Part shown: piece by piece, positions 34,870 to 62,434 of the stretch
How the letters are laid out: the number at the start of each line of letters is the position of its first letter
Position numbering within the stretch: position 1 is the stretch's first letter
DNA from: Candidatus Heimdallarchaeota archaeon
GTDB taxonomy: Archaea > Asgardarchaeota > Heimdallarchaeia > Hodarchaeales > Hodarchaeaceae
Direction of reading: 5' to 3'
DNA: 64,000 nucleotides
NCBI GenBank assembly: GCA_019057635.1
Contig: DXJL01000066.1
Coordinates: 1 to 64,000, forward strand
The notes under the pieces: generated by a model
The model's database searches: none
Told to the model about the DNA's origin: nothing
Seen by the model: the letters and a program-made list of their open reading frames with translations, nothing else
Translations under genes and position numbers: made by a program

Positions 34870-36933
34870 TCATTTCGTAAGTAAGTTCCTTAGCTCAATT
34901 AAAACTTTATCAATCTCGTTGTTTGCTTTTCTAAGTTTATTATCATAATCGATTTTTAACTTAGCATAAGCTTCTTTTCCAATCCGACCTTGAGTTTTCT
35001 TCTTCTCTAATGACTCAATATTAATCAAGTAATCTTCTCTACTCGCCTCAGCAACTTCAATTGATCGCATAGACAACCGTATACGAGGATTTTCCTCAGC
35101 AAGTTTGCGAGAAACAGAGACAATAGTCCGATCATTCTGTTGCTGTTGATTTCGGAGAATAATTTTTGTCTGCTCATATTCTCGGGCACTAATATTTTTT
35201 GATTTTCGTTTGCGATCCAATCTTAGTATCTGTTCGCGAATTGCTGTCTTCTCTTCATACGATTTAACGAAACTTTTAATCAAATCTAGTGGTATTTCTT
35301 CAAGTACGAGTTTTGAGGGTTTATATCCAAATGAAAGGTTTCTAACAAGAGCGTATGCTAGACCAATTAATAAAAAGAATAATGAAAAAGAGATTGGAGT
35401 ATAAAGTTGGTTTAATGGACTTATTCCATATTCTATTCTAATTTGCTTATTACTAAGCGGGGTTAATTCTTCAAAACTTAACTTATATCCTCTACTATTA
35501 AATAGACCTAAGAATTGTTTTTTCTGAATAGCTGAAACAGAAACGGGACTTCTCAATGAACTTTCAAATGTTGCATCCATAATTTTTGTTCTGGATATGG
35601 ATGATCCAAATGGGAATAGTAATTCAAGATCGTACTCTTGAATTGTACAATTGAAGCTTGTTGACAGATCAGTTAATAGTTGTACTTTTCCCCCGCCGAG
35701 ATTGTTAATAACCTTAGTCGATGGTTGTGTGAACGAGAGTAGGAGATGATACTCTGCACCTTGTTCTATCTGGACTCTTGGTCTAAACTCAATTACTTTT
35801 TTCTGTGTTACTGGATCTGCATCTACAATTGGAGTGATATTTCCGTAGTTATCTTTAACTCCAATTTTACTCGCAGAATCTGGGACGTTAAATGATAATG
35901 TAGGAAAAGTCGTTCCTCCAAGTGCGGTTGATAGGACAGGTCCAGATTGTAATCCTATATTTTTTAGACGTATTTCTTGCGTGGTGAACACTTTTCCCCA
36001 CTCCGATACTTCAATAGTGGTCACCAAAGAAGTGAATGTCATAAAAGTTCCAGCAACCTGGAAATAGTCAAATGTCAAATTCTCTGTTAAATTATGAGCA
36101 ATATTCGGTTTGTAGGAAGGAATAAAGTTCCGATTTGCAAGAGCTGTAAGATTATAGTTACCATGTTCAGATTGATTTAGAACTTCCCGATTAATTGATG
36201 ATAATTCTTGAATTTCCTCGTAACGAAGAGTAGTTAATTCTTGATTAATATTTCCAGTAAAATTTGTTTCTGTTGGCCTTAATGATTCATTATTTATATT
36301 AATACTAATATCTTTTCCTACCATCCATTTTAAAGTGTAAGAAGTAATGGGAATGGTAAGTAAAGGTAAAAAACTTAAATTAAAATGGTAAGGATATTCC
36401 GACTCCACAAGTTCATCGTTTTGATCATAAGTTATGGCGTTCGGATGATCCATATCCATAATTAGAGTGACTGTCTCCTCAGAACCGACTGAAGGAAATT
36501 TTATAACAATTTCTGTTGTTTGATTTCCAATGTGAACATCATATGCTGTGTTTTCAGTCTCTGTATCATTCTGTGAGTAAATTTTGAAATACTTGGAGCT
36601 ATTATACTCATTTGTTGGAAGAATATAATTTAAAGCGTTGATTTCAGTGGAACTATTGCTTGATATCTGAATCTCTGTTCTAGATGAAGTATATCCATAT
36701 TGGTTTGCAGTTATTGTTCGATCTACATTAATTAGATGACTTGTGTTAGTAAATTCAGTAACATCGAAATACATTAAATCTGTGATGTTTAAATTACTGT
36801 TTTTTGTGTTCACTGAATCGGTGCTCGAACTCGCCTCACCAGCGTTAACTTGGGGATTAGCGATCAAGAATGTCGAAGTAATAACTATGGCGAGTAGTAA
36901 AAAACGCAAACCATTTCCTAAGATTTTCTTCAT
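34870..36933 (-). CDS. Ribophorin I (Ost1/RPN1) homolog
   Basis: Signal peptide, IEVSEWGKV (~IEVSHWGNI), KDNYGNI (~RDEIGNV), EFRPR, single TM, cytosolic helical tail. Confidence 0.8.
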   Translation of the reverse strand: MKKILGNGLRFLLLAIVITSTFLIANPQVNAGEASSSTDSVNTKNSNLNITDLMYFDVTEFTNTSHLINVDRTITANQYGYTSSRTEIQISSNSSTEINALNYILPTNEYNSSKYFKIYSQNDTETENTAYDVHIGNQTTEIVIKFPSVGSEETVTLIMDMDHPNAITYDQNDELVESEYPYHFNLSFLPLLTIPITSYTLKWMVGKDISININNESLRPTETNFTGNINQELTTLRYEEIQELSSINREVLNQSEHGNYNLTALANRNFIPSYKPNIAHNLTENLTFDYFQVAGTFMTFTSLVTTIEVSEWGKVFTTQEIRLKNIGLQSGPVLSTALGGTTFPTLSFNVPDSASKIGVKDNYGNITPIVDADPVTQKKVIEFRPRVQIEQGAEYHLLLSFTQPSTKVINNLGGGKVQLLTDLSTSFNCTIQEYDLELLFPFGSSISRTKIMDATFESSLRSPVSVSAIQKKQFLGLFNSRGYKLSFEELTPLSNKQIRIEYGISPLNQLYTPISFSLFFLLIGLAYALVRNLSFGYKPSKLVLEEIPLDLIKSFVKSYEEKTAIREQILRLDRKRKSKNISAREYEQTKIILRNQQQQNDRTIVSVSRKLAEENPRIRLSMRSIEVAEASREDYLINIESLEKKKTQGRIGKEAYAKLKIDYDNKLRKANNEIDKVLIELRNLLTK

Positions 36934-40478: not shown

Positions 40479-41852
40479 TTAAGCAGGAGTAAGCTGTTGT
40501 GCAACACTAGAGACTAAACTGAAATTAACAATGGGGAATGATTGAGAATTAACCTCCCCTCCAGATATAATGACAAGATACGGAATTTTTCCTAATATCT
40601 GGGCATAATGTTCCATATACTGTTGAAATCGATCTCCAACAATCATTGCACGATTACCACAATCAAAGAATAGGCCAAATTTTGTGTTGTTTCCAATTAA
40701 AGAAGATAAGCTTTCATCTAGTAAATTCTCAATTGTTACCGCACTTTGATTACAGATATACGATTGATATTTATCTTTATGATTGACATATAGTTTTTTA
40801 GCAACCTGATTCGGTGCAGTAATTAAAGCATGATTAAGATTTGGATTTATTGAAAGTCCATATAAATTTTGACTCTTCTTATCATCTAAAATACATAAAG
40901 GCTTAAAGGGGTGGTAATAGAAATATTTTTGGGTACATTCTTCAAGAATTTCTGGAGTACTCTCCATTTCATATATTTTAAGTAAAGATTTCGCTCCCCA
41001 TTGACCGTCTATTCGCGGAATAAATCCTCCATCCAAATAACTGTCAAGAGAGAAAGGTTTCTGGAAATCTACCGTTGCTCCAGTATCAGTTTTACTCATG
41101 AATCTTAAATCAGGAGAGCTAAGTGATATAAATGTCATAGAATCTTTAAATGCCTTATAATTGTAAAATTGATACGATTTACTCATTGAAATGGGATCTA
41201 CCCCAAATGTACCGGTATAATGAATACCTCGTTGATATAATTCTTGAAATAAAGGCCATGCTGATGAATATGATATTCCAATGCCAAAGAGATTCATGAG
41301 AAAATTAACAACTTTCCCTGTGAACCGGGAAAGAGCTGGTACATCCCTCCAGATTCGATTATTTAAGGCAAAAAATGGATTAAATCCTTCAAGTCTATGA
41401 TTCATTAAATTTACCATAAGTTTCGGAAATCCTAGACCAGGAGGAAAAAAGATGAAACTTGTAGAAGAATTCTGTTTTAATTCTTTATTTTCAATGGTTA
41501 TACATTTTTTTAGAATTTCTTTGGTTTTGGTTCCTGTCCTAAGACGGAAACGCTTAATTAAATGTGTACTGACCGATATACCTGAAAAAAGCATGATTGC
41601 AGCTCCTTTCAGACCATAATCCTTACTATTCGCTATTCCAGTCCCCGAACATCCTGCTAAAGGAATAGTTGGATATGTTTTCTTGATAATCTTTAAAGAT
41701 TGATTATATACTTTCTTACCACCAGGATGGGTTCCAGTAAAGTAAAGAATTCCAGTTGGTTCCGTATTTAACTCAGTTTCAGCTTGTTGAAGAGCTGTCT
41801 TTGTTGCGAATTTTAGATCGTGATTTATACAAAGTCCAACGGAAGTTTTCAT
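40479..41852 (-). CDS. FIST-domain sensory protein
   Basis: FIST-N YPTIPLAGCSGTG; FIST-C GLFFDCGNR, GGEV, VNFS. Confidence 0.75.
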   Translation of the reverse strand: MKTSVGLCINHDLKFATKTALQQAETELNTEPTGILYFTGTHPGGKKVYNQSLKIIKKTYPTIPLAGCSGTGIANSKDYGLKGAAIMLFSGISVSTHLIKRFRLRTGTKTKEILKKCITIENKELKQNSSTSFIFFPPGLGFPKLMVNLMNHRLEGFNPFFALNNRIWRDVPALSRFTGKVVNFLMNLFGIGISYSSAWPLFQELYQRGIHYTGTFGVDPISMSKSYQFYNYKAFKDSMTFISLSSPDLRFMSKTDTGATVDFQKPFSLDSYLDGGFIPRIDGQWGAKSLLKIYEMESTPEILEECTQKYFYYHPFKPLCILDDKKSQNLYGLSINPNLNHALITAPNQVAKKLYVNHKDKYQSYICNQSAVTIENLLDESLSSLIGNNTKFGLFFDCGNRAMIVGDRFQQYMEHYAQILGKIPYLVIISGGEVNSQSFPIVNFSLVSSVAQQLTPA

Positions 41853-42304
41853 TGCTCTAAATCACCTATTGATTGTTTTCTATCTATTACTATTCCTAAA
41901 CGCTTCGCAGTTCTGCTCATCTCTATTTCCATTAATCCAGTATTCGCCCTAGAATGTAATATCACAACTAAAATCCCTGAGTTACCAGCACGGTAGAAAT
42001 AAACTGGAAGTGCTTCATTTTGATCTATTTGTTTATTATATTTTATAGATCTAGCACCATGTTTGAGTTCTTCTTTTGTTTTTGAAATAATGTCTTTTAC
42101 CCATCTAATAACAGTTAGGATAGAACTAGAAGTTTCTGGATTATAAAAAGAGGTTAAAACTCTTCCATCTAAGCGAAAAAGAATTGTTGCTCTTACATCT
42201 CGAAATGTAAAAAGATGGTCAGCTTCTATTTGGATTGATGAGATTGCTCTGGATAATTTTAAGGCCTGATCATCCATATTACTTATTGGAGATTTCATAA
42301 ACAA
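41849..42304 (-). CDS. Roadblock/LC7 (MglB/LAMTOR-like) protein
   Basis: VRATILFRLDGRVLTS; AGNSGILVVIL..ANTGLMEIEMSRTA. Confidence 0.75.
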   Translation of the reverse strand: MFMKSPISNMDDQALKLSRAISSIQIEADHLFTFRDVRATILFRLDGRVLTSFYNPETSSSILTVIRWVKDIISKTKEELKHGARSIKYNKQIDQNEALPVYFYRAGNSGILVVILHSRANTGLMEIEMSRTAKRLGIVIDRKQSIGDLEQ

Positions 42305-43031
42305 TTAATCCTTTTTCTTTTTGAAAACTGATAGGTTGAGGAGTTTCAGAGTGTGACGATCCTCTAAATTTTCTAATACTCATTGTTCGATTGTAGATGC
42401 CTCCTAATCCAATATGTTCTAGTTCTATAATGGAATCGGATAGAAAAAGAGGGATTCTAGCTAAGACATCTCCAAAACCTTTTTCTAATGTGACTACGGC
42501 TGTTCCAATCTCTCTAAGAGATGAAAAAATTCGATTGATTGCGTTACGCTGTTGATTTGGGTCTGAAATTTCTAAAAGTAATGGTGTCAAAGGATCAATT
42601 GCTATTCGTATTCCTCCCGAATATTTTGAAGCGGTTTCTTTTATTATTTCAAGATATTTAGGGAGTTCATTCATAAAAAATCTTAAACCAATTTCTCCTG
42701 AAGTTAATTCTGAGTCGGCATTAAAAGCAACTTGGAATTGTAAATTCCCCTCTCTGTATTTTTCACCAAAGCTTTTCAATCCAATATCACTACAGTCTCT
42801 TAATACCGAATTTATATTTTGCTCTAGTGACACATAGAGAGCTGGAGTGTGTAGATCAGATGAACAATACTGCCAACAAAAAGTGGATTTTCCACACCCA
42901 GGATCCGCAATAATCACGTTGACCGAATGCTCTCTAAATCCACCATTTACAAGGTTGTCAAAGCCGATTACTCCACTAGGTATCCGCGAAGATCGTGCAT
43001 TTATCGTTTTTCTCAATAATTTTTGCATCAT
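42279..43031 (-). CDS. Single-domain KaiC/RAD55-like RecA-superfamily ATPase
   Basis: IPSGVIGFDNLVNGGF, Walker A ADPGCGKST, YVSLEQ, RIAID, RKFRGSSH. Confidence 0.88.
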   Translation of the reverse strand: MMQKLLRKTINARSSRIPSGVIGFDNLVNGGFREHSVNVIIADPGCGKSTFCWQYCSSDLHTPALYVSLEQNINSVLRDCSDIGLKSFGEKYREGNLQFQVAFNADSELTSGEIGLRFFMNELPKYLEIIKETASKYSGGIRIAIDPLTPLLLEISDPNQQRNAINRIFSSLREIGTAVVTLEKGFGDVLARIPLFLSDSIIELEHIGLGGIYNRTMSIRKFRGSSHSETPQPISFQKEKGLIVYEISNK

Positions 43032-43038
43032 TAATTCC

Positions 43039-43629
43039 TCATGAAACTAATAGTTTATTAGATAATTGAGTATTTGAATCTGAAGATATGTTCGTTAATT
43101 TACTGTTTTTTCTTTCGATTGTCAATAGAACTTTCTCAAAAATATTTATAACCGATTTTAAATCTTTAGCTGAACATTTAAAAGAAGTTACACAATTAAA
43201 CCTTTGAATATATCTCGCTAAATCGAAATTTTTCTCATCTTGAGTTGCTAAGTCGGATTTTGTACCAATTAAAAATCGGGGAATAGCAGGTGTGATAAAC
43301 TCAAGCCATTCACTTAGATTGAATAAGGAAGAAAGATCAGTAAGGTCGAAACAAAGTAATGCGGCATCAGCACCCTTACAAAATTCACTAAAGACTCCCA
43401 TGTGTTTGAAATGCTCTTGACCACCAAGATCCCAAATCTGTAGCTTGCTCACTCCCTTATCAGAATGAGTAATAATCTTCGAATGGAACTCTACTGCAAT
43501 CGTTTGTTTCGATTTTGTGAAAAAATAATTATCGATGTATGATTTCGAAATTGTTGTTTTTCCTACACCCCCTTCTCCCAAAAGAACTATTTTCAATGGT
43601 TTTTTTTCTTTCGAAGGAACTAACTGCAA
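43039..43629 (-). CDS. Rab-like small GTPase
   Basis: G1 GEGGVGKTT, G2 TIAVEF, G3 WDLGGQE, G4 TKSD, G5 CSAK; RabF-like KLQIW, FCKGA, CFDLT. Confidence 0.9.
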   Translation of the reverse strand: MQLVPSKEKKPLKIVLLGEGGVGKTTISKSYIDNYFFTKSKQTIAVEFHSKIITHSDKGVSKLQIWDLGGQEHFKHMGVFSEFCKGADAALLCFDLTDLSSLFNLSEWLEFITPAIPRFLIGTKSDLATQDEKNFDLARYIQRFNCVTSFKCSAKDLKSVINIFEKVLLTIERKNSKLTNISSDSNTQLSNKLLVS

Positions 43630-52760: not shown

Positions 52761-53003
52761 TTATACAATATACACGTTTAGAGTTAAAATCAATAATCCA
52801 AATATTATTGCATACTTTCCAAATTTAGTACCAGTAGGAACATAGAGTATCGACCCTAAGGTAAGTGAAAGGAGTCCAAAAGGTATCGAGATAAAAATCG
52901 AAATAATTTCCTTAATTATCTGAACAACTATTACTTCTAGCATTTTATTACCACTTCCAAGTGGGAAAATTAGGAAAGTTATTTCCAAGGGGAATAATGA
53001 CAA
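52761..53003 (-). CDS. Small 2-TM protein, possibly TrbC/VirB2-pilin-like (likely start at MLEVIV)
   Basis: Helical hairpin: hydrophobic-GSILY-loop-GKYAIIFG-hydrophobic. Confidence 0.4.
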   Translation of the reverse strand: MSLFPLEITFLIFPLGSGNKMLEVIVVQIIKEIISIFISIPFGLLSLTLGSILYVPTGTKFGKYAIIFGLLILTLNVYIV

Positions 53004-53610
53004 CTAAAAGACAAATTATACTTTTTCTTATATTTTTAACAAAATTTTTTTCTGGATTAATAATATATAACCCACAGTTGCCAATGAGAAAAATTAGAGA
53101 TACTGTAGCAAGAATAAATACGAGATACATACTAACGAAAGATGTAAAAGATTCAAGCTGCTCAAGATTTGGCGAATTCATATTATTCTTGGGAGAAAAA
53201 TCATTAAATATGAAAATGAATAATGTAATTATACTAAGTGCACGGATGATCATTTTCTTACCATTTTCTTCCCTTTCATCTAGTAAATATGTTATTCCTC
53301 CTGATATCAAAGATAAGTATGATATTAGAAGTGCAATCACGTGAAGAAAGGGTAGAACTTCAACGAATAAGCCAATAATCGATGAAGAAATCCCCTCAAA
53401 TTGATTAATATCTAATATGTCAATAATTAGAATTATTTGACTCCTTAATAGTATTAGATAAGAATTTAATTCGTCTTTCTGACTTAATCGATACATGTTC
53501 AAAAATAAATGTTTTACTTGTATATAAGAACCATAAAATATTCTATATCTGTAAGTAGTAATTCCTAAACCAAATACCCCCTTATCTGAGACAAAGGACT
53601 TATCCTTCAA
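52948..53610 (-). CDS. Membrane protein with two TrbC/VirB2-like helical-hairpin repeats (start uncertain)
   Basis: LISGGITYLLDEREENGKKMIIRAL and LIGNCGLYIINPEKNFVKNIRKSII repeats. Confidence 0.45.
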   Translation of the reverse strand: MKDKSFVSDKGVFGLGITTYRYRIFYGSYIQVKHLFLNMYRLSQKDELNSYLILLRSQIILIIDILDINQFEGISSSIIGLFVEVLPFLHVIALLISYLSLISGGITYLLDEREENGKKMIIRALSIITLFIFIFNDFSPKNNMNSPNLEQLESFTSFVSMYLVFILATVSLIFLIGNCGLYIINPEKNFVKNIRKSIICLLVVIIPLGNNFPNFPTWKW

Positions 53611-54932
53611 ATCATGTCCAGATTTCTTGTTTCGAGATAATTAATGGTAAAAGAAGAATGTGTATTAATCTGTGAGTCAATAAATCGATCCTTTTGCCTA
53701 TCAGAAATTGTCAAGATATCTCCTTCTGGAGTTAGCTCTGCAATTCTAATAATAAATCTCTTACGGATGTTTTCTCTCCAAACTGTATCCATCTCAACAA
53801 ACACATGAGGGAATGACGTTTTAATGAGACTTATAGGAATTTTATAAATATCTTGTAATCGTAAGAGCAAATAATTGGGATCTTTTCCATGAATTGTCTG
53901 GATCGAGGGTATACCAACCGAAAGAACATTCAAGAGTGCTATAAAATTATCTTTTGTAGAAAGTTCTCCTAAGTTGACATAATCAGGACTTCTATGTAAT
54001 AATTTTTGAATTTCCATTGCTTTTGTATAGATATTGCTTTCATGAGGATCATAACCAAGCCTAAATCTTACCTGATTACCCCTCCTCAAACTTGAAGTTT
54101 CTAGTACATCCTCTACAGATAAAACTCTGAAATGAGAAGGAATAAATTCTAATAGAGCATTTTGCAGAGTTGTCTTTCCCGAGTTTGGAGGACCGATAAT
54201 GGAGAGGGATACTAAATTACTCATTATACTACTTAGAAAAATTCCTTGAGATTTCGTGATACTCCCGATATCAATCAAATCCTTAAGATGAAAATTGTGA
54301 TGACGAAACTTCCGTATATCTAAATGAATATCATCTATCAGTAAAGGTGGAATGTCAACCGTTATTCGTGTATGAAATAGCTTAGTCACAAAATCCCCCT
54401 TCATTGTTGGATTTTCTCGATTTAAATTAAAATCGTTCTCGAGAGCTACCCTATGTATAAAAGAGTCAATTTCTTTTTTGGATAACCGAATTTGGGAAGA
54501 ACACCTACCATACTGAGCATGATCAATGTATAAATAAGATTTACTCGAATCCAAGTATATTTCATCAATTTGGTTATCTACTAGCAAGGATCCAATTCTC
54601 TCCATGTTTAGAATTCTGAAAAGAACAGGAATAATTAAATGCTCTGAAAAACCTAAAGTCTTTCCTCCTAGATCTGATACAAAGGAAAGTAGTTCATCTA
54701 GCGTTATGAAATCTTGTTTATCCACAATTAATTCTTTTATGGTGTCTTTCAGCTCCTGTTCATACAAATTAAACCTTTTCAGTTCCCTCATTACTTTCTC
54801 ATCATAAACAACTTGATATTCAATCTTCGACGTAATTTTGTTCTTCTTTATCGATGCTTTATAACACCAAAATTCGTAAGAATCAATCAACATGCTAGAT
54901 TTTTGATTTATAACTAAATCAACTAATACCAT
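53607..54932 (-). CDS. Type II/IV secretion ATPase (VirB11/TadA-CpaF/ArlI family)
   Basis: EIYLD..YIDH..YG, DIRKF, Walker A GPPNSGKTT, Asp box SVEDVLE, Walker B RSPDYVNLGE, QTIH. Confidence 0.9.
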   Translation of the reverse strand: MVLVDLVINQKSSMLIDSYEFWCYKASIKKNKITSKIEYQVVYDEKVMRELKRFNLYEQELKDTIKELIVDKQDFITLDELLSFVSDLGGKTLGFSEHLIIPVLFRILNMERIGSLLVDNQIDEIYLDSSKSYLYIDHAQYGRCSSQIRLSKKEIDSFIHRVALENDFNLNRENPTMKGDFVTKLFHTRITVDIPPLLIDDIHLDIRKFRHHNFHLKDLIDIGSITKSQGIFLSSIMSNLVSLSIIGPPNSGKTTLQNALLEFIPSHFRVLSVEDVLETSSLRRGNQVRFRLGYDPHESNIYTKAMEIQKLLHRSPDYVNLGELSTKDNFIALLNVLSVGIPSIQTIHGKDPNYLLLRLQDIYKIPISLIKTSFPHVFVEMDTVWRENIRKRFIIRIAELTPEGDILTISDRQKDRFIDSQINTHSSFTINYLETRNLDMI

Positions 54933-54962
54933 GCAGAATTTCCTCCAATATTTTTCAAAAGA

Positions 54963-55322
54963 TTACTTTTTCTGTCTCATTGAGTTCTTAATCATTTTCT
55001 CAAATAAATTATCAAGTTTTCCAGGAGCAAATTTATCCATCTTAATGAGATTCTTCCGAACTAAATCAAAACAATATTTTCTTCTGACTTGACCATCCCC
55101 ATCTATATACAAGGTTAATACATGGCCATTTTTGGCGTGAGAAATTGCCTTCGTCAGAAGAGAGTGATCATTCCTTGCTTGTTCCAATTCTGTGAGATTT
55201 ATGGTTATAGACTCATATTTTCCACAAATAGGACACGTAGTGGTAATATACTTTGTCTGCTCTTCTAAAACGGGCACTTCCATCAATATTCTTATCGAGA
55301 ATATACAATTAATAACACCCAA
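54963..55322 (-). CDS. Small Zn-binding protein, unknown function
   Basis: CPIC...H...GHVLTLYIDGDGQVR; co-oriented upstream of the ATPase. Confidence 0.6.
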   Translation of the reverse strand: MGVINCIFSIRILMEVPVLEEQTKYITTTCPICGKYESITINLTELEQARNDHSLLTKAISHAKNGHVLTLYIDGDGQVRRKYCFDLVRKNLIKMDKFAPGKLDNLFEKMIKNSMRQKK

Positions 55323-55622
55323 ATATGATCAAAATTGTCCGATAAATCTTTCTCCTCATTTTCACCCTAGATAATAATGGAGGTTTATTTTGTTTTTTAC
55401 CTTTATTTTTCTTGATATAGATTATGCATTCTTAGGTTCTTATGAATCAATACTCAGTTAGCATTTGTAAATTGAAAAGGAATATAACTAAGGTTTTATC
55501 ACGCATTATGAAATTTCTGTATAGAACAAACGAGACAAAAGCGAGTTAAATCCAATGATCCCTTATATATTAGCTTTTAATAATACTTTATTGAATAACC
55601 AAGAATTTTTGAGGAATTCCGG

Positions 55623-57098
55623 TTGATGGATGTTATAACTAATCATGTATTCGGGAAATTAGATTTTTTTGAGAAACTAAATTACTCTCATTACTGGAAA
55701 TCTAAATATTGGATTACTAGAAGTCAGATAGAAACATTAATCCCCATTCTTAGTGTATTGTTTATAGGATTTACGTTTATTCAAATAATGACGGATCTTA
55801 TTAGAATCGAGTACCTGATCCTAGAATACTTCTTCTTTTTCGTGTGTTTACGTCTCATTTTTCTTTTCATACATCAAGATTTCAAAAATTATATGATTAA
55901 AGCTGAAATTATAGGATATTTTGTACTACATGAGTTATTAATAATTCTGGAAACATCAAAATCACTGAAAGAGGCGACTAAGTTTATTATAACAGGTAAA
56001 TATTTAATATTCTCGGATATATTTAGTGAAAGCCTGATTAGATCGCATTTTGGGCAACAACTCAATGATGCTCTTAGATCTCAAATTAATAGCCAAATTT
56101 CTGGAGAGTTAAGACGTATTTTTCTCAACGTTATTGATACTTGGGAAACTGGAGTTGAAGTCGCTCAGCTATCAACAAATATGATTCTAAACCATCTTTC
56201 CGAATATATTACGGAAGAAACTGATAAAGTGGATACGTGGGGTTCCCTTTTCTCAGGATTAATTTTCTTAAGTCCTCCAGTGATCTTATGCTTTCTCTTG
56301 CTTTCAGGCCAGATAAGCTATATTATTGTAATCATTTTAATAGCAACTGTTTTTTTTGGTTCATTTTTATTTCGACCTGATAAACATCTATCAATATTTA
56401 CCAGTGATTCACCGATTTTACCCTTTACTGACAATAAGACGATTGAATTATTAATGATCCATGCTGAAAACTTATCATTAGGAGTGTCCTATACAAAAAG
56501 CTTGAATAAAGCTTTAAATATTTATATCACAAATTCGACAGAGGACATCGCTTCCTCAATGAAAGACTCTCTTATTTCTTTTCGTCTAGGTATAGAACGC
56601 ACTTCTTTTACTGAGCTTGAAATTCTTAGGAAATTTTTTTCCTCTAGAACAATTCAAATCCTTAATTTGATTGAAAAATTTAGTTATGTTAACACAAAAC
56701 TAGCAGGTTCTAAGCTAATGATGATAACAGAAGAAATGAGTAAAACCGGCAACTTACTTCGCACTGGAAAAGCCAGAGTAAAAGCAATATCATTTCAGAC
56801 TACAATCATACAAACATTTTCACTTATTTCTTTAGGATTTATAGCTGGAGCAAGTCCTTTCTTTCAATTGATATCCTATTCTGTTGGAGAATTTGATCTC
56901 AAGACTCATATAGTTACAAATTTTGACCCTATTTTCATTTTCCTTGGATTTCTAATGAGTATATTACCTATATACTTTAATTTCAGCTCTGAATACAAAA
57001 TAAAGTCAACACAAGATATCATCATTCGTATTTCACGATTTCTGCTGTTCTTGATTGTATTCAATCTTGCTAGAGAAATCCTGACGGTGTCTTTCTAA
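55623..57098 (+). CDS. TadB/TadC (ArlJ/GspF-like) membrane platform protein
   Basis: Two repeats of TM pair + cytoplasmic helical domain (LETSKSLKEA..GQQLNDAL..TWETG; LSLGVSYTKSL) followed by TMs; divergent from the secretion ATPase. Confidence 0.6.
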   Translation: MMDVITNHVFGKLDFFEKLNYSHYWKSKYWITRSQIETLIPILSVLFIGFTFIQIMTDLIRIEYLILEYFFFFVCLRLIFLFIHQDFKNYMIKAEIIGYFVLHELLIILETSKSLKEATKFIITGKYLIFSDIFSESLIRSHFGQQLNDALRSQINSQISGELRRIFLNVIDTWETGVEVAQLSTNMILNHLSEYITEETDKVDTWGSLFSGLIFLSPPVILCFLLLSGQISYIIVIILIATVFFGSFLFRPDKHLSIFTSDSPILPFTDNKTIELLMIHAENLSLGVSYTKSLNKALNIYITNSTEDIASSMKDSLISFRLGIERTSFTELEILRKFFSSRTIQILNLIEKFSYVNTKLAGSKLMMITEEMSKTGNLLRTGKARVKAISFQTTIIQTFSLISLGFIAGASPFFQLISYSVGEFDLKTHIVTNFDPIFIFLGFLMSILPIYFNFSSEYKIKSTQDIIIRISRFLLFLIVFNLAREILTVSF

Positions 57099-57188
57099 AG
57101 AAAATAAATTTCATAAATTCTTGGGTTGTTTTAAATCTAGTTGGTGATCCTTAAGTAGAAATAAGATTTCAGGTAGGATTCTATTTAA

Positions 57189-60100
57189 ATGAGAGCTGGT
57201 CTATTTGTTCTTGATAAGGGTCAATCTATCGTGATATTATTTTTGTTTGTATCACCCATACTTGTAACCACAAATAATTCATCTATATCCTCATTAATAG
57301 GAATGACCGATCCTGATAATAGGTTAATGTCGTTGGCTTCAAGAACCAACGTTCAAAATGAGTTACCTGACATTCAACCAAGCATTCAATCCAGTTCTAC
57401 AAACAATAATCGAATCCCGTATTCCTGTGAACAAAATACCAGTGTTGATCTTACTAGCAAAAAGTTCTTTTCGATTAATACATCGGAAACTAGTAACATT
57501 CTTGTAGAATCAACCCCGATATCATCATCGTTCCTCATTCATTCTGGTGTCTCAGAAGAGAGAATTTCTTGGCAAAACGATATTGAGCCTGAATATGGCG
57601 ATGTAGAAATCTTTAAAAATCTCTCTGCATTTTTCCCGTATTATCGTCTGAATTTTTCAGAAAATAATGTTACTCCAGTGTCAGGAGTAACAAATACTGA
57701 TTTTAATGTAACAGCTAATCCATCACCATGTAATTTCTCAACAGAATTTTTATTCGAATATAGAATTCCCTTCATAAACAGTACGTTGATTAATGAAATT
57801 CATTCCTTAGTTTTGGAACTAAGGTTCAATGATGCCTCTTTAAATTTCATAATTGCTGACAAAGGTAGTTATTTCGGGACTCCTGTTGAGGAGAATGTTT
57901 ACAAACCTGGTACCAATTCATTATATATTCTGTGTAATGAAACAGACCAATCTGATTGGATTTTCAAAAATTATAATATTACACATTTAATTACTCAATA
58001 CTTCCTCCCCTCCGAATATTCTTTTTTCTCTCGGTTAGAAACCGTGTTTTGCTATATGTTTGCCTTCATTCCTGAATTCCACATTAGTTTAGACATTAAG
58101 GTGATTAATTATACTACTATATTGTCTCCTAATGAAAGTGCAGTGATATATACTATTGGCGAAACAGAAATTCAGAGTGAAAATGGAAGTCTGAAATATG
58201 AATTTCTTGGTAGTAATATATCACTTCAAGCCAGAGAAAATACTTTGTGGTATAATTACCAGATAACGATGTTCAATGTAGTTATAACACGATATATTGA
58301 AGTTTTTACTAGACCCCAACTGATTAGTTGGAATAACACTTTTGTGCGAGTCAATTTGAATCTATCTATTCCCCAGCTTTTCTCTCAGTCTCTTTCTAGT
58401 CGACTATTCATAACTCTTCCCTTGGATTGGATCCTCCTCAATAATAGAAACAGTTCAATACCTTTTGAAACATTAGGGCTTTTAGAAATCCCCTCTGATA
58501 ATTTGACTGGTCAACTATATTGTTTTTCGATTCAAAATCTTGAGACTTTTTTATTACAAAGCTGGGTTCCAAACTATATAAAAAATATTGAAGCTCCAAC
58601 TATTGTCTCATATTATGAGAAGATTCAAGTTCTAGGAAGCTTATTACAGCCAACAACAGGAGTCTTGCATCTCTATTTAATGAATAATACAGTTTTTCAT
58701 CATGATACTACAATTTGTATGTTGAATGGTAGTTTCATATTTTCTATGATAAGTATTGATGATATTTATCCATTAGGAGTCATTAATCTACTAATCAATC
58801 TGTCTTCTAATTATCAATTTGGAATATATCAACAAATACTTCACATTCACTCGGGGGAGGAAACCTCCGCCCGTATTAATCTCTTCACACCTGAAGTTCT
58901 TGAGATATACCAATACGATCCGATCTTTCTGAACCTCTCACTGGAAAAGAATGGATTAAAATACTTAGAAGAGTCAACAATGGTTATTCTAGTAATAGGA
59001 GAGTTTATACATCAATTAAATCAATCTATCAATGGATTTTTCCATCTCACAGTAAACCATGTAGTCTGGCCACCACAACAGAGCAATGTCACTGTTATTG
59101 CATCAAATGGTGGAGATTTTTTTGCATCAAAATACATAAATATAACGATTTATCCTATAGTTGTTGATTGGGATATTCAAAGGATTCCAGAAGTACAAAA
59201 TCCTGATAGTAATCTTTCTTTGGGAGTAAATGTATTTATAAGTCCACAAGAGGGTGGTACGAATTGGCCCTTATCTGGGGTGGATTTAACGATCTGGGTT
59301 AACAGTACATTGATTCATCAGTGTCCAACTAATGATTTTGGGTATGCTGACGTCATTATATCATCCAGAAATTACCACACTTCAAACCTTTTAAATCTAA
59401 TTATCATTGCGAAATTAGAAAATATCATACTTAAGATGAATACCTTTACAATCTCAATATCTAATGATTCTACCGAGACTGACAGAATTCATCCCTATCT
59501 CGATGAAATTATGAAAACTCCGATAGTCAGTAATAAGAGTTTTTTTTGTATTTACCATGTTATGTATCCTACTAATGGTTCTCAATGGTTTGTTTCCCAT
59601 GATAATTATCAAGGTACTCCAATTTCTGCCTATTTAATGAGAAATAATATTGTTTTAGAGATTGAAGTCACAGATCAATTAATTACTTGGGATCTTGTCA
59701 GTTCTCCAACGAATAATGATACTTTAGTCGTGGAATTTCTGGGGCCGTTTGTTACTTTTTCAGTCTCGCAAGGAGTTTCGAGTTATGATTTACATATTGA
59801 AAGTTTCTCGAATTCTACAATTTCTAATTATACAATAATATTGGATTTGGATTTCATTGATTTTCCTTTGAGTAAAATCGTTTTACGAGATTTTCTTAAG
59901 AGAGATATTACAAATAAGTTTGAAGTCGAACTTATAGACACACATATTCACTTAAAATTCTTAAATATTATTAATGGGATAATTGTCAACTACTATCTTG
60001 AGATCCAATTTGATACCCCTAATATCGAAATACTGACTAATTTTATGGAGAATTATGCATATGACGGCCTTATCACTGGAAAATGGAGATTTACTTCTTC

Positions 60101-60713
60101 CAGTGAGTTTTCCTATTCGGTTTCATATACAATTTCGAACCAATCTAGATCTGAGTGTCGAAATACAACTATAATTCCCCTTCCGAATAACACGTTCATT
60201 GTAGAAGCCTTTTTTCCAAGATTCAAATGGAATTCATCTGTTTTTGTAACCTTGAAGTTAAATTTCCCAAATGGAGCAATTTCTACAAGTCCTGGACAAT
60301 TCTTTACTATCATTGATCCCTATCCTCCTGATTATTCTTTTTATCTTGAATCCCACGACGAAATTATCAATCTTCATATAATCACAGCTGAACCTGAGTC
60401 AGGATCAGGAGTCCAAAGAATAATCGGTAAATATCTTGGAATTCAGTATAATTCATCGGTTTTAAACACAAATCATCATCTGATTGAACTTCCAAGAAAT
60501 AATTCTCAATTTGGGGTGATTAATGTTATAATATCAGATTGGGCTGGGAATGAAAATTCCTTTAATATTGATTTGAAATCTGAGTTGGAATCCCAACCTA
60601 TGAGAGAGAAACTAGATCCTTCGTTATTCCTCCCATCGCTATTCTCTCTAATGTCAATTTGTGGAATTTTGGCTTTTAAGTTCATAAGAAAAAGACAATC
60701 TTCTATTCTGTGA
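57189..60713 (+). CDS. Large cell-surface glycoprotein (Ig-like beta-rich, C-terminal TM anchor)
   Basis: N-terminal hydrophobic signal, many N-x-S/T sequons, IDPYPP...SGV...SDWAGN Ig-like motif, C-terminal TM + RKR. Confidence 0.7.
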   Translation: MRAGLFVLDKGQSIVILFLFVSPILVTTNNSSISSLIGMTDPDNRLMSLASRTNVQNELPDIQPSIQSSSTNNNRIPYSCEQNTSVDLTSKKFFSINTSETSNILVESTPISSSFLIHSGVSEERISWQNDIEPEYGDVEIFKNLSAFFPYYRLNFSENNVTPVSGVTNTDFNVTANPSPCNFSTEFLFEYRIPFINSTLINEIHSLVLELRFNDASLNFIIADKGSYFGTPVEENVYKPGTNSLYILCNETDQSDWIFKNYNITHLITQYFLPSEYSFFSRLETVFCYMFAFIPEFHISLDIKVINYTTILSPNESAVIYTIGETEIQSENGSLKYEFLGSNISLQARENTLWYNYQITMFNVVITRYIEVFTRPQLISWNNTFVRVNLNLSIPQLFSQSLSSRLFITLPLDWILLNNRNSSIPFETLGLLEIPSDNLTGQLYCFSIQNLETFLLQSWVPNYIKNIEAPTIVSYYEKIQVLGSLLQPTTGVLHLYLMNNTVFHHDTTICMLNGSFIFSMISIDDIYPLGVINLLINLSSNYQFGIYQQILHIHSGEETSARINLFTPEVLEIYQYDPIFLNLSLEKNGLKYLEESTMVILVIGEFIHQLNQSINGFFHLTVNHVVWPPQQSNVTVIASNGGDFFASKYINITIYPIVVDWDIQRIPEVQNPDSNLSLGVNVFISPQEGGTNWPLSGVDLTIWVNSTLIHQCPTNDFGYADVIISSRNYHTSNLLNLIIIAKLENIILKMNTFTISISNDSTETDRIHPYLDEIMKTPIVSNKSFFCIYHVMYPTNGSQWFVSHDNYQGTPISAYLMRNNIVLEIEVTDQLITWDLVSSPTNNDTLVVEFLGPFVTFSVSQGVSSYDLHIESFSNSTISNYTIILDLDFIDFPLSKIVLRDFLKRDITNKFEVELIDTHIHLKFLNIINGIIVNYYLEIQFDTPNIEILTNFMENYAYDGLITGKWRFTSSSEFSYSVSYTISNQSRSECRNTTIIPLPNNTFIVEAFFPRFKWNSSVFVTLKLNFPNGAISTSPGQFFTIIDPYPPDYSFYLESHDEIINLHIITAEPESGSGVQRIIGKYLGIQYNSSVLNTNHHLIELPRNNSQFGVINVIISDWAGNENSFNIDLKSELESQPMREKLDPSLFLPSLFSLMSICGILAFKFIRKRQSSIL

Positions 60714-60720
60714 GCTAACT

Positions 60721-62139
60721 ATGATGATCTTGAGAGAAAAAAATCAAATCTGGAGAGTATTGTTATTCAGTTTTTTTATTGGATGTTTTTTCATTATCAG
60801 TATGTTCAGCATTTTTTTTTCTGGAGAAACTCAATATTCCTCAAATTACATGTTCACATTGATAATTGGAAACATAATTCCCATTGCAATCGCGTGTCTG
60901 TTGATTTTCTATGAACTGAATATATTTTCATTTGAAAGAAAAAAACTAATGACAATTAAAGGAGGGAAGGTGCTATTCATTCCCCGATTCAATTTGTATT
61001 TAAGTATATTTGAGTGTAGTTCAGTATCAGATGTTTTTGTCGAGGGGTTAGATTTATTAAATGCGTTGAATAGGTATTCAATTGAAATAGATGGAATTAA
61101 TAATAGATTAAGGGTGTTTTTTTATTCAAATTCAATAATTGAATTGTCTAGATACATAGAGGAAGCCAAACCATTACTTGATACAATCTTTCCCAATTTA
61201 CTGTTACTAACTGCTTCTTCTCTAAAAGAAGGATTTCTAAATTATTCGCTTAAGAGGATGGGGGATTATCGTGCGATAAAACAAGGGCATTATTTGATCA
61301 TTCCAGAAAAAGAACAAAACTTTCTCTTAAAAAGTCCGAAAAATTATACACATGTCATAAATTATAACTCTCAAGCAAGTTCTGAGGAAAAAGCAAATAA
61401 ATTTGAGTCCATCCAGCTCTATTCTTTCATTAGATTTGAAGAAGCATCATTTTTCGATTTTTTTGGGAGAATGTGTTTTACCGATAGAAATATGTTTTTT
61501 ACTGACATAGTTGAAGAAAATCTTCTTTTACGCGCAATAATTCGGTATAAACTTATTGGTTTTAACTCTATTTCGGATAATGAGGGAATAATTAACTTAC
61601 AACAAAAATTAAATGCATTAAATATGGGAAATAATGCTGTAGAATATCCTGACAAATTTATACCGCCTCTAGCCGCTCTGAGCGAACATAATCCTGATTC
61701 ATCAAATTTTCTTTCAATTAATCAGAAATTTAATCAAATTTGCATGGAATTATGTAACATTTCTCGGAGTTCAATGGATGAGGCAGTTAAAGCAAAGAAT
61801 TGCGTTGATAGGGCAAGTTTTTGTAAAAAACTTTTAATCAATCAAAATTTCGCAAATTTCCTTAGTGAACTTGTTGATGGTGAAGACGATCAAAGAAAAG
61901 ACACTATATTATCTGATCTTCTAAGACATGTGTCTTTTCATCAAATTCATTGTTTATTAGCACAGTTCATTGCTTCTTACGACTCTGATAATCTCGATAA
62001 GCAAATTATTAAATTATTGCATGTTTTAATACAAAAACAACTCGAAATTAATAGTATTGAAGGAGATTCGGGGAGAAATTACTTTTCAGTTGTAGAATCT
62101 TTTCATCAAAGACTGAATCACGGGACAAACATTGCGTGA
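60721..62139 (+). CDS. Membrane-anchored hypothetical protein (2 N-terminal TMs, large soluble domain)
   Basis: 472-aa ORF starting 7 nt after the surface-protein gene; two hydrophobic N-terminal segments. Confidence 0.65.
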   Translation: MMILREKNQIWRVLLFSFFIGCFFIISMFSIFFSGETQYSSNYMFTLIIGNIIPIAIACLLIFYELNIFSFERKKLMTIKGGKVLFIPRFNLYLSIFECSSVSDVFVEGLDLLNALNRYSIEIDGINNRLRVFFYSNSIIELSRYIEEAKPLLDTIFPNLLLLTASSLKEGFLNYSLKRMGDYRAIKQGHYLIIPEKEQNFLLKSPKNYTHVINYNSQASSEEKANKFESIQLYSFIRFEEASFFDFFGRMCFTDRNMFFTDIVEENLLLRAIIRYKLIGFNSISDNEGIINLQQKLNALNMGNNAVEYPDKFIPPLAALSEHNPDSSNFLSINQKFNQICMELCNISRSSMDEAVKAKNCVDRASFCKKLLINQNFANFLSELVDGEDDQRKDTILSDLLRHVSFHQIHCLLAQFIASYDSDNLDKQIIKLLHVLIQKQLEINSIEGDSGRNYFSVVESFHQRLNHGTNIA

Positions 62140-62238
62140 CGGATTGTCAATACGTTATTTAGGAATGTCACCGTCTAAAATGAAATTTTTAGACATTATT
62201 AGTAAAAAATGACTCTTATTCAACAAATAAGTTGGAAG

Positions 62239-62373
62239 TGGGCCCACCCGGATTTGAACCGGGGATCTCTCGGTTTCTATCGGCAGCCTGGGAAACCAGT
62301 TGCGTTATCAGCATCACCCGCCCAGAAAAATTTCTGAACGTCGAGCGCTTTAACCAGGCTAAGCCATGGGCCC
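62239..62373 (-). tRNA. tRNA-Ile(GAT) with two introns (30/31, 29 nt, 62313-62341; 37/38, 31 nt, 62275-62305)
   Basis: Spliced product is a 75-nt cloverleaf: GGGCCCA/TGGGCCC acceptor, CTCGG-CTGATAA-CCGAG anticodon arm, CCCGG-TTCAAAT-CCGGG T arm; intron hairpins with BHB-like junctions. Confidence 0.88.
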
Positions 62374-62434
62374 AATAATATTCCACTAAAATGACATCTA
62401 TCTTCGTTTTACTTGATTAAATAAAGGTTATGGA

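Follow-up and report, generated by a model that had tools for sequence, protein, structure and literature searches.

Which machine is encoded by seven neighbouring genes that, in a Hodarchaeales genome, lie between genes for RNA polymerase subunits and ribosomal proteins? The genes occupy positions 52761-62139 of a 64,000-nucleotide stretch of DNA from a Candidatus Heimdallarchaeota archaeon of the family Hodarchaeaceae (GenBank assembly GCA_019057635.1, contig DXJL01000066.1, positions 1 to 64,000 of the forward strand), which is referred to below as the window. Relatives of two of the organism's proteins carry the labels Hodarchaeales or Heimdallarchaeota, in agreement with the Asgard origin given in the preliminary description. 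All seven open reading frames (ORFs) were confirmed at their coordinates, are arranged in two divergent arms and are judged to be real genes (Table 1). A preliminary description of this DNA had taken them for an undescribed chimera of a pilus and a type IV secretion system (T4SS). The results point instead to a divergent and expanded type IV filament system: with a probability of roughly 60%, an ancient type IV filament machine of archaea, of the Tad/Flp-like type, is present here in a version that is particular to the lineage, evolves fast and has been expanded.

The leftward arm encodes an ATPase, for which membership in the TadA/VirB11 superfamily had been proposed. This assignment holds. 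The protein matches the Pfam family T2SSE (E 5.1e-14, 52.1 bits at a cut-off of 24.9), and its matches in the PDB are afGspE (2oap; 3.6e-19, 72.6 bits), CpaF (1.1e-13, 54.5 bits), FlaI (7e-11, 45.3 bits) and VirB11 (1e-5, 28.4 bits). Four blocks of residues are invariant in 17 aligned sequences: G247, P249, G252, K253, T254 and T255; E274, D275 and E278; H313-P316 with G322 and E323; and H348. We take these blocks to be the Walker A motif, the Asp box, the Walker B motif with its Glu, and the His box. The protein is a very divergent motor of the GspE/FlaI/TadA type with intact catalytic motifs.

The VirB11 match bears on a hybrid machine, in which the two hairpin membrane proteins of the same arm would be VirB2/CedA1-type pilins on a VirB11-like ATPase and the whole would form a conjugation- or Ced-like tube for DNA transfer or cell contact. 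Among the NCBIfam models, VirB11 (TIGR02788, 76.4 bits) does indeed score highest with the ATPase, followed by TrbB (63.5), FlaI (56.5) and the TadA family (53.5), all far under the cut-offs. The curated cut-off of TIGR02788, an equivalog model, is 249.95 bits, so that the protein does not qualify as VirB11 proper, and the PDB scores favour afGspE, CpaF and FlaI over VirB11.

The rightward arm begins with a membrane protein that the preliminary description had called a TadB/C-like platform. In other families of the same class, two membrane proteins of ~275 and ~214 amino acids (aa) are encoded directly after the orthologous ATPase. The N-terminal half of the window protein aligns with the former (hhalign Prob 96.9, E 1.6e-10) and the C-terminal half with the latter (Prob 96.1, E 3.5e-9). 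Because the halves align to two separate ATPase neighbours, the 491-aa protein is read as a fusion. The profile of the genus family retrieves only 46 proteins among 1.84 billion representatives, and the connection to the T2SSF family runs through intermediate sequences. Pfam T2SSF matches are found in 11 of the 35 aligned members of the platform family (best 1.1e-17), three of them above the cut-off. The relatives P0052 and P0044 exceed the cut-off, and P0018 matches the platform family of the window at 2.6e-66 and T2SSF at 2.3e-4, slightly under the cut-off.

The AlphaFold (AF2) model of the platform (mean per-residue confidence, pLDDT, 80.7; predicted template modelling score, pTM, 0.75) aligns with the cytoplasmic domain of EpsF (2vma; Z 8.1, 118 of 122 residues), the N-domain of PilC (2whn; Z 8.2, 102 of 103 residues) and SpoIIIAB (Z 9.0), and its second half with TcpE (Z 4.9). 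These matches cover 93-99% of the respective domains; since unrelated helical chains reach similar Z values, the values alone are not decisive. A Foldseek search with the same model returned one weak PilC row (E 0.014), the other listed rows having E-values of 0.2 or weaker and being mostly G-protein-coupled receptors, and PDB profile searches with the platform and its split C-half relatives gave chance-level rows or none. Gene position adds to the picture: the platform adjoins its cognate ATPase as the divergent neighbour here and is adjacent to it in 67 of 80 related loci, and a local hidden Markov model (HMM) of the platform matches ATPase neighbours in 11 of 20 distant loci. From the sequence chain, the gene position and the structural matches together, the T2SSF-family assignment is sound, and the platform proposal is upheld through relatives, profile comparison and model rather than through a Pfam match of the protein itself.

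Motor and platform recur with the same partners well beyond the genus. Among 12 loci from other classes, the ATPase and two platform genes are found repeatedly with a gene for a TFB-like zinc-ribbon protein and with a short ORF that has a prepilin-like leader, usually in the order TFB paralog, ATPase, platform N, platform C, prepilin. A larger set of 80 loci was taken from species-representative genomes fetched by ATPase motifs and scored with local HMMs and an uncalibrated ad hoc Flp motif filter. It covers many Asgard classes as well as Nezhaarchaeales, Bathyarchaeia, Culexmicrobium, Methanomethylicia, Thermoprotei and Nitrososphaerota, with no locus from Pyrobaculum or Thermoproteus. The ATPase is present in all 80 loci, the platform in 67, a TFB paralog within 4 kb in 59 and a Flp-like ORF in 41; all three partners accompany the ATPase in 31. 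For the 18 loci of TACK lineages, the corresponding numbers are 13, 12 and 12, with all three in 11. These counts are lower bounds because several loci are cut by contig ends. The motor and platform are parts of a module that is common to Asgard and TACK archaea.

The ATPase family itself is matched at E<=1e-20 in 132 of the 151 genomes of the Asgard phylum. In a quick tree of 47 ATPases, the sequences of the genus form one clade (SH-aLRT, an approximate likelihood ratio test of branch support, 100) with a stem of 3.21 changes per column. This clade falls inside the TFB-linked family, where the quick tree gives it no firm position. Every genome of the genus encodes only this ATPase and one distant canonical paralog (~25% identity), and the canonical paralog of the genome studied here is located outside the TFB-linked family on a branch of 5.3.

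The preliminary description had started from the premise that the machine is without a type IV pilin. It is correct that no prepilin gene lies within the seven-gene cluster. The premise is nevertheless overturned, since the orthologous module carries a Flp-like prepilin and the genome has a copy of its own in the same window, 9 kb upstream of the cluster. The basic leader of this 71-aa product ends in Arg-Arg-Gly and is followed by Ser-Pro-Leu-Val-Glu-Glu-Gly and a hydrophobic helix, which corresponds to the G-x4-E pattern known from Flp-type pilins. In a genome-wide scan for prepilin motifs it was the only convincing short ORF, the other match being internal to a 138-aa ORF. Residues L27, E29 and L33 are invariant in 15 aligned members of the family, which has the architecture of Flp-type prepilins. 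There are 124 database homologues, with 68-100% identity among the matches listed; wherever a source name is given it reads hypothetical, and Pfam domains are absent throughout. ORFs with the same motif are located beside the orthologous ATPase in nine loci. The product is probably a filament subunit.

Further components of such a system are encoded elsewhere in the genome. A TFB paralog (C31:66984-68087; E 4.1e-69, NCBIfam TFIIB 1.7e-8) is found on the same contig ~5 kb past the cluster, beyond the window. There is one Peptidase_A24 gene, on contig C82 (27.7 bits at a cut-off of 26.5). Contig C68 carries a canonical type IV system, composed of an ATPase gene and two T2SSF genes that match Pfam, and five adjoining ORFs there have, by eye, pilin-like N-termini. 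As this second system has pilin-like ORFs of its own, the Flp-like pilin is left free for the ATPase of the cluster.

From the homology, gene architecture, synteny and intact catalytic motifs described above, we infer the assembly of a filament, the pairing of pilin and motor, and all accessory roles. In the ancestral operon, the gene for a TFB (TFIIB) paralog would have stood together with those for a secretion-type ATPase, a pair of TadB/TadC-like platform proteins and a very small Flp-like prepilin. Within the genus, the platform genes would have been fused and turned round, the prepilin gene would have moved off to its present upstream position and the TFB paralog to its downstream one, and new genes would have joined, namely those for the Cys/His, 4-TM (transmembrane), 2-TM hairpin and 472-aa membrane proteins. 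By analogy with the respective families, the Peptidase_A24 protein would cleave behind the Gly or Ala of the prepilin leader, the hexameric ATPase would dock on the cytoplasmic domains of the platform, and ATP-driven movements would then raise the pilin helices from the membrane into a thin filament.

The two hairpin proteins are the remaining candidates for a T4SS component. Both are helical hairpin membrane proteins. An alignment of seven orthologues of the 2-TM protein has invariant residues G43, G50, Y54, P56, G58, G62 and G69 and places the start at M21, and homologues of the 4-TM protein of 165-190 aa indicate a conserved start at M39. The small protein is a hairpin, as had been stated, probably of ~60 aa; its likeness to VirB2/TrbC, and the two VirB2/TrbC-like hairpins claimed for the 4-TM protein, find no counterpart in the searches. 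Neither protein matches TrbC/VirB2 or another pilin family in Pfam, NCBIfam or PHROGs at E<=0.1. The AF2 model of the 4-TM protein (pLDDT 67, core 73-91) aligns with syntaxin-like and chaperone-like helical bundles at Z 8-9.6, which are generic bundles, and the 50 best rows of the VIA-wide and of the Foldseek search with this low-confidence model include no conjugative pilin. Homologues of the 4-TM protein with a single hairpin and ~95 aa are found, at a weak level, in one other family. When the local HMMs of the hairpin, Cys/His and 472-aa proteins were run against the 20 distant loci, there was one match, a single-hairpin ORF in locus L043, and the 2-TM protein had none.

The two hairpin families have a common motif, L-x-x-G-x-I-x-Y ... 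G-K, with 41% identity over 32 columns in the best local alignment, a resemblance in favour of a hybrid machine with hairpin pilins. At the profile level they are not significantly related (hhalign E 0.22; pairwise z-scores 3.3, 1.6 and 0.1). A derivation of the hairpin proteins from the platform was considered as well and is not detectable (hhalign E 0.21). No VirB4/HerA, VirB6 or coupling-protein family is matched by any of the seven cluster proteins, and motor and platform are orthologous to those of a module with a Flp pilin. The Tad/VirB hybrid is not supported as the description of this cluster and is the least probable of the explanations weighed here. Rather than as pilins, the hairpin proteins most likely serve as accessory or stator-like subunits.

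The genomic neighbourhood of the cluster is conserved in the genus. On one side it is flanked by RpoA1/RpoA2 followed by L30e, a NusA-like KH protein and S12, and on the other by S9, L13 and L18e. In seven of the eight same-genus loci, all seven genes are found in one order between rpoA1/A2 and S9-L13-L18e (tblastn with the 7 cluster and 5 flanking proteins), so that the expected co-occurrence in relatives is confirmed. Identities of the cluster proteins to those of locus L013 are 27-58%, compared to ~91% for the flanking RpoA1 (tblastn). Orthologue-level matches to the ATPase, the Cys/His protein and the 4-TM protein are each found in 19 of 21 genomes of the genus, and the two genomes without them are the same in all three cases and 70-71% complete. 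The position of the cluster is fixed in the genus while its sequence evolves fast, and the seven genes co-occur far above chance.

The eighth locus, L014, is rearranged. In its interval G008:C18 10793-18005, the ATPase gene is ~7 kb distant from those for the hairpin proteins and the glycoprotein, and relative to rpoA the platform arm has the opposite orientation. This separation, together with the four genes that have no detectable type IV link, would fit two unrelated gene sets in one variable spot, the ATPase, Zn protein and platform on the one hand and the glycoprotein, 472-aa and hairpin proteins on the other. The order kept in seven of eight loci despite such low identities speaks against this explanation, as do homologues of the glycoprotein near the ATPase in seven loci of other Heimdall-class families and a protein resembling it in one locus of another class, and we consider it highly improbable.

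The guanine-cytosine content of the cluster is 0.30-0.33, that of the flanks ~0.33-0.40. A PHROGs search with the cluster proteins returned nothing that points to a mobile element or virus, and the cluster is not read as a genomic island, because its location is fixed in the genus. Promoters are presumed in the intergenic region between the arms, from its divergent layout. A sigma-70 scan gave 51 sites versus 50.7 +/- 8.1 expected by chance, with a bacterial consensus that is not applicable to archaea, and a scan for bacterial-type terminators, a model that likewise does not apply to archaea, remained at chance level. An RpoN-type gene might have its place between S9 and the 472-aa gene; the 56-aa ORF found there (62216-62386, minus strand) has no Pfam match at E<=0.001.

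The largest protein of the cluster has a hydrophobic N-terminus (signal or anchor), a sequon-rich ectodomain, a C-terminal TM segment at 1145-1163 and a basic tail. It contains 41 N-x-S/T sequons, compared to 18.2 +/- 3.9 in 500 shuffled sequences, and the earlier reading as an anchored glycoprotein of 1174 aa is thereby borne out. It aligns over 764 columns with ~960-aa proteins that other families encode near the module (hhalign Prob 99.2, E 1.8e-19). At the seven loci from other families of the Heimdall class, its homologues are encoded at most ~7 kb from the ATPase, and the one other-class locus has a protein resembling it. From this homology, the glycoprotein is an old partner of the module throughout the class. 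Neither Pfam nor the PDB gives a match to its sequence; the ESM Atlas gives a weak lead (0.75) to Ig-like/macroglobulin (MG4) proteins. Its most likely role is that of an envelope or adhesin partner. Judged by eye, an ORF of 687 aa elsewhere in the window (34870-36933, minus strand) starts like a signal sequence, is rich in N-x-S/T sites and ends, after a late hydrophobic segment, in a long charged tail; it may encode a further envelope glycoprotein.

The Cys/His protein had been described as a small Zn protein. The set of Cys and His residues is confirmed, with C30, C33, H53, H62, H67 and C84 and a GHVLTLYIDG..VRRKYCF block invariant in eight orthologues; a match to a known Zn family is missing in Pfam, NCBIfam and the PDB profile search. 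It was compared with the TFB paralog as a lost zinc ribbon (hhalign Prob 4) and with long ATPase N-termini as a split-off N-terminus (Prob 0.1), and both origins are rejected. Weak homologues exist elsewhere in the class. In two genomes of the genus, a second, diverged copy is found away from the cluster, at G019:C57:9043-9333 (E 2.7e-35) and G013:C140:12659-12952 (E 7.9e-34), and the domain occurs inside proteins of 367-377 aa in another family. The protein is a possible metal-binding partner of the ATPase. For the last gene of the rightward arm, the two TM segments of the earlier account are found again at the N-terminus. The alignment of this 472-aa protein has invariant residues C341, C345, C361 and C411, and there is no lead in Pfam, the PDB or the Atlas, no match to a VirB4 family and no match of the local HMM in the 20 distant loci. 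The Cys/His, hairpin and 472-aa proteins are, as far as their sequences tell, lineage additions.

Table 1 Features of the cluster, of the linked prepilin locus and of ORFs beside the module in other Asgard loci. Positions refer to the window unless a locus (L) is named
Feature	Position	Strand	Remarks
Small 2-TM hairpin protein	52761..52943	-	Longest ORF to 53003 (80 aa); conserved start M21, ~60 aa
4-TM protein, two helical hairpins	52948..53496	-	Longest ORF to 53610 (220 aa); conserved start M39, 182 aa
Type IV filament assembly ATPase, 441 aa	53607..54932	-	GspE/FlaI/TadA/VirB11 superfamily
Small cytoplasmic Cys/His protein, 119 aa	54963..55322	-	Orthologues suggest start near M14
Divergent intergenic region, 300 bp	55323..55622	.	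Between arms, from gene layout
Fused TadB+TadC-like (T2SSF-type) platform, 491 aa	55623..57098	+	Profile comparison, relatives, model
Surface glycoprotein, 1174 aa	57189..60713	+	TM segments, sequon excess
472-aa membrane protein	60721..62139	+	2 N-terminal TM segments and soluble domain of ~400 aa
Flp-like prepilin, 71 aa	43732..43947	+	9 kb upstream of cluster; basic leader, prepilin motif, hydrophobic helix
Ras-family small GTPase	43039-43629	-	Pfam Ras 4e-31
KaiC-like ATPase	42279-43031	-	7.8e-29
151-aa ORF without family	within 40479-43629	-	Pfam search
FIST-domain protein	40479-41852	-	Pfam search
~135-150-aa ORF	L037 58-459; L039 14794-15225; L041 12880-13314; L042 3693-4127; L048 13641-14090		By eye

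The surroundings of the individual components provide some further observations. Divergent from the prepilin gene lies a run of signalling-type genes on the minus strand (40479-43629). KaiC-like ATPases are listed among the candidate regulators of type IV pili in Makarova 2016 (PMC4858521). Downstream of the prepilin peptidase gene come a 174-aa ORF and an ORF that resembles, by eye, a P-loop GTPase (C82:21466-23662). Similar P-loop ORFs are seen by eye near the ATPase module in L047 (12088-12747 and 15284-15862) and L048 (2887-3477), and they are reminiscent of the MglA/MglB-type polarity switches of bacterial pili. In five Asgard loci, a conserved ORF of ~135-150 aa with N-termini alike by eye adjoins the TFB paralog (Table 1). 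Information-processing genes adjoin the module in several lineages (L044 375-3728 and L045 11565-14912, also L038 and L041). The neighbouring ORFs of ~1115 aa resemble RNA polymerase subunit B by eye, and ribosomal protein genes occur as well, an echo of the rpoA/S9 flanks in the window and of the RPB8 link of subclade 4D that is introduced below.

Some of the findings weigh against a working filament system of the Tad/Flp-like type. The prepilin ORF has no match to the Pfam model Flp_Fap (PF04964), one of the seven Flp-like ORFs tested matches it weakly (E 0.039, 14.2 bits at a cut-off of 32.2), and no NCBIfam pilin model is matched by the Flp-like ORFs at a meaningful level. The prepilin gene is located outside the cluster, and its pairing with the ATPase rests on synteny in other genomes, where a Flp-like ORF was found in just 41 of 80 loci, some of them cut by contig ends, with the ad hoc filter. 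The 491-aa platform has itself no Pfam T2SSF (PF00482) match at E<=0.1, its family has no hhalign similarity to the canonical TadB/C of the same genome, and Z values of 8-9 are in the chance range for helical models, with unrelated helical proteins ranking among the T2SSF-type matches. Finally, four of the seven genes (Cys/His, the two hairpin proteins and the 472-aa protein) match no family and have no assignable function.

Published descriptions of a related group of loci point in the same direction. Makarova, Koonin & Albers 2016 (PMC4858521) describe subclade 4D of Pyrobaculum/Thermoproteus, in which RPB8 is accompanied by a TFIIB homologue, a 4-5-TM protein and an ATPase whose N-domain is rich in Cys; they report no pilin and raise a possible transcription-related role. 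According to a 2026 survey (PMC13705601), ordered loci for type IV filaments are rare in Asgard archaea, and 4D is likely to be a remnant.

These accounts, together with the location between rpoA1/A2 and S9-L13-L18e, would fit a repurposed machine that no longer builds a filament and serves instead for the export, insertion or display of the giant glycoprotein or, with the TFB paralog, for a transcription-linked role. The detached pilin gene, the long stem of the genus ATPases, which fits a change of function, and the second canonical type IV system with pilins of its own by eye are also consistent with it. Several observations argue against it. The prepilin is tightly conserved and, in many lineages, operon-linked to ATPase and platform, and a dedicated pilin under such conservation argues for a working filament. 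The catalytic motifs of the ATPase are intact, and the published absence of a pilin probably reflects short ORFs that were not annotated. We regard a repurposed, non-filament machine as unlikely.

With the Tad/Flp-like filament system as the preferred explanation, the window shows both the dismantling and the expansion of a pilus machine in Hodarchaeales. The module is widespread in Asgard archaea and often ends in an unannotated Flp-like prepilin, so that the question of a remnant or a working pilus becomes directly testable. The association of a basal transcription factor paralog with a pilus motor extends from TACK to Asgard archaea and represents an old, unexplained regulatory link. The cluster also offers concrete candidate genes for the surface filaments of cultured Hodarchaeales. 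For these organisms, a preprint (10.1101/2025.02.26.640444) describes unexplained helical filaments of 15-25 nm with round knob tips on protrusions at contacts with methanogens. A link of the cluster to these thick filaments is speculation. It would require that the lineage additions, namely the expanded glycoprotein and the hairpin, Cys/His and 472-aa proteins, turn the Flp machine into a builder or anchor of cell-contact filaments, which we consider quite improbable. If true, it would describe an organelle for cell contact in those archaea that are, as far as known, most closely related to eukaryotes.

Among known systems, the Ced/Ted systems and the VirB2 pili of T4SS resemble the cluster, by description, in having small 2-TM hairpin membrane proteins beside a membrane machine. 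Ced/Ted and T4SS use VirB4/HerA-type ATPases and a VirB6-like CedA. Neither was detected in the cluster, and its hairpin proteins have no family match or specific fold match. Among archaeal filaments, the Epd pili of Methanococcus, named 'system 1' in the 2026 survey (PMC13705601), are comparable. Again by description, they are type IV filaments of an archaeon, with a pair of TadC-like genes and with short pilins that have no globular head. Their loci encode several pilins and are not known to include a TFB paralog.

The bacterial Tad/Flp pilus (TadA/CpaF, TadB, TadC, Flp, TadV) shares several features with the cluster and its module. The ATPase matches CpaF, the platform consists of two T2SSF-type units, a peptidase of the A24 family is encoded in the genome, and the prepilins of 61-91 aa, ~45-60 aa when mature, have a G/A-x4-E leader junction. 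Homologues of the secretin, TadZ and TadE/F/G were not seen here, the Flp_Fap model does not recognise the pilin, the platform is fused, the partners include a TFB paralog and a giant glycoprotein, and the host is an archaeon with a single membrane.

A further comparison is with subclade 4D. A description of the Hodarchaeales cluster, or of a Flp-like pilin in TFB-linked loci, was not found in the literature; the supplementary tables of PMC13705601 (S4, S5, S10) and subscription-only papers may list these genes. Compared by description, both systems combine a secretion ATPase of divergent sequence with a short membrane protein that is TadC-like and with a TFIIB/TFB paralog dedicated to the system, and both are fast evolving and located in an RNA polymerase gene neighbourhood. 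In other Asgard loci, the ATPase has, by eye, a Cys-rich N-terminal extension as described for arCOG05558. The cluster studied here differs in its fused platform, in an ATPase without this extension and in five further genes, one for a class-shared glycoprotein and four lineage-specific. Its giant secreted protein has no equivalent in 4D, which is described without a secreted protein. Unlike 4D, which is described as pilin-less, the Asgard/TACK module includes, in 41 of 80 loci, a prepilin ORF of the conserved Flp-like kind, and it looks like the 4D theme with the addition of a pilin that the annotation of short ORFs has missed.

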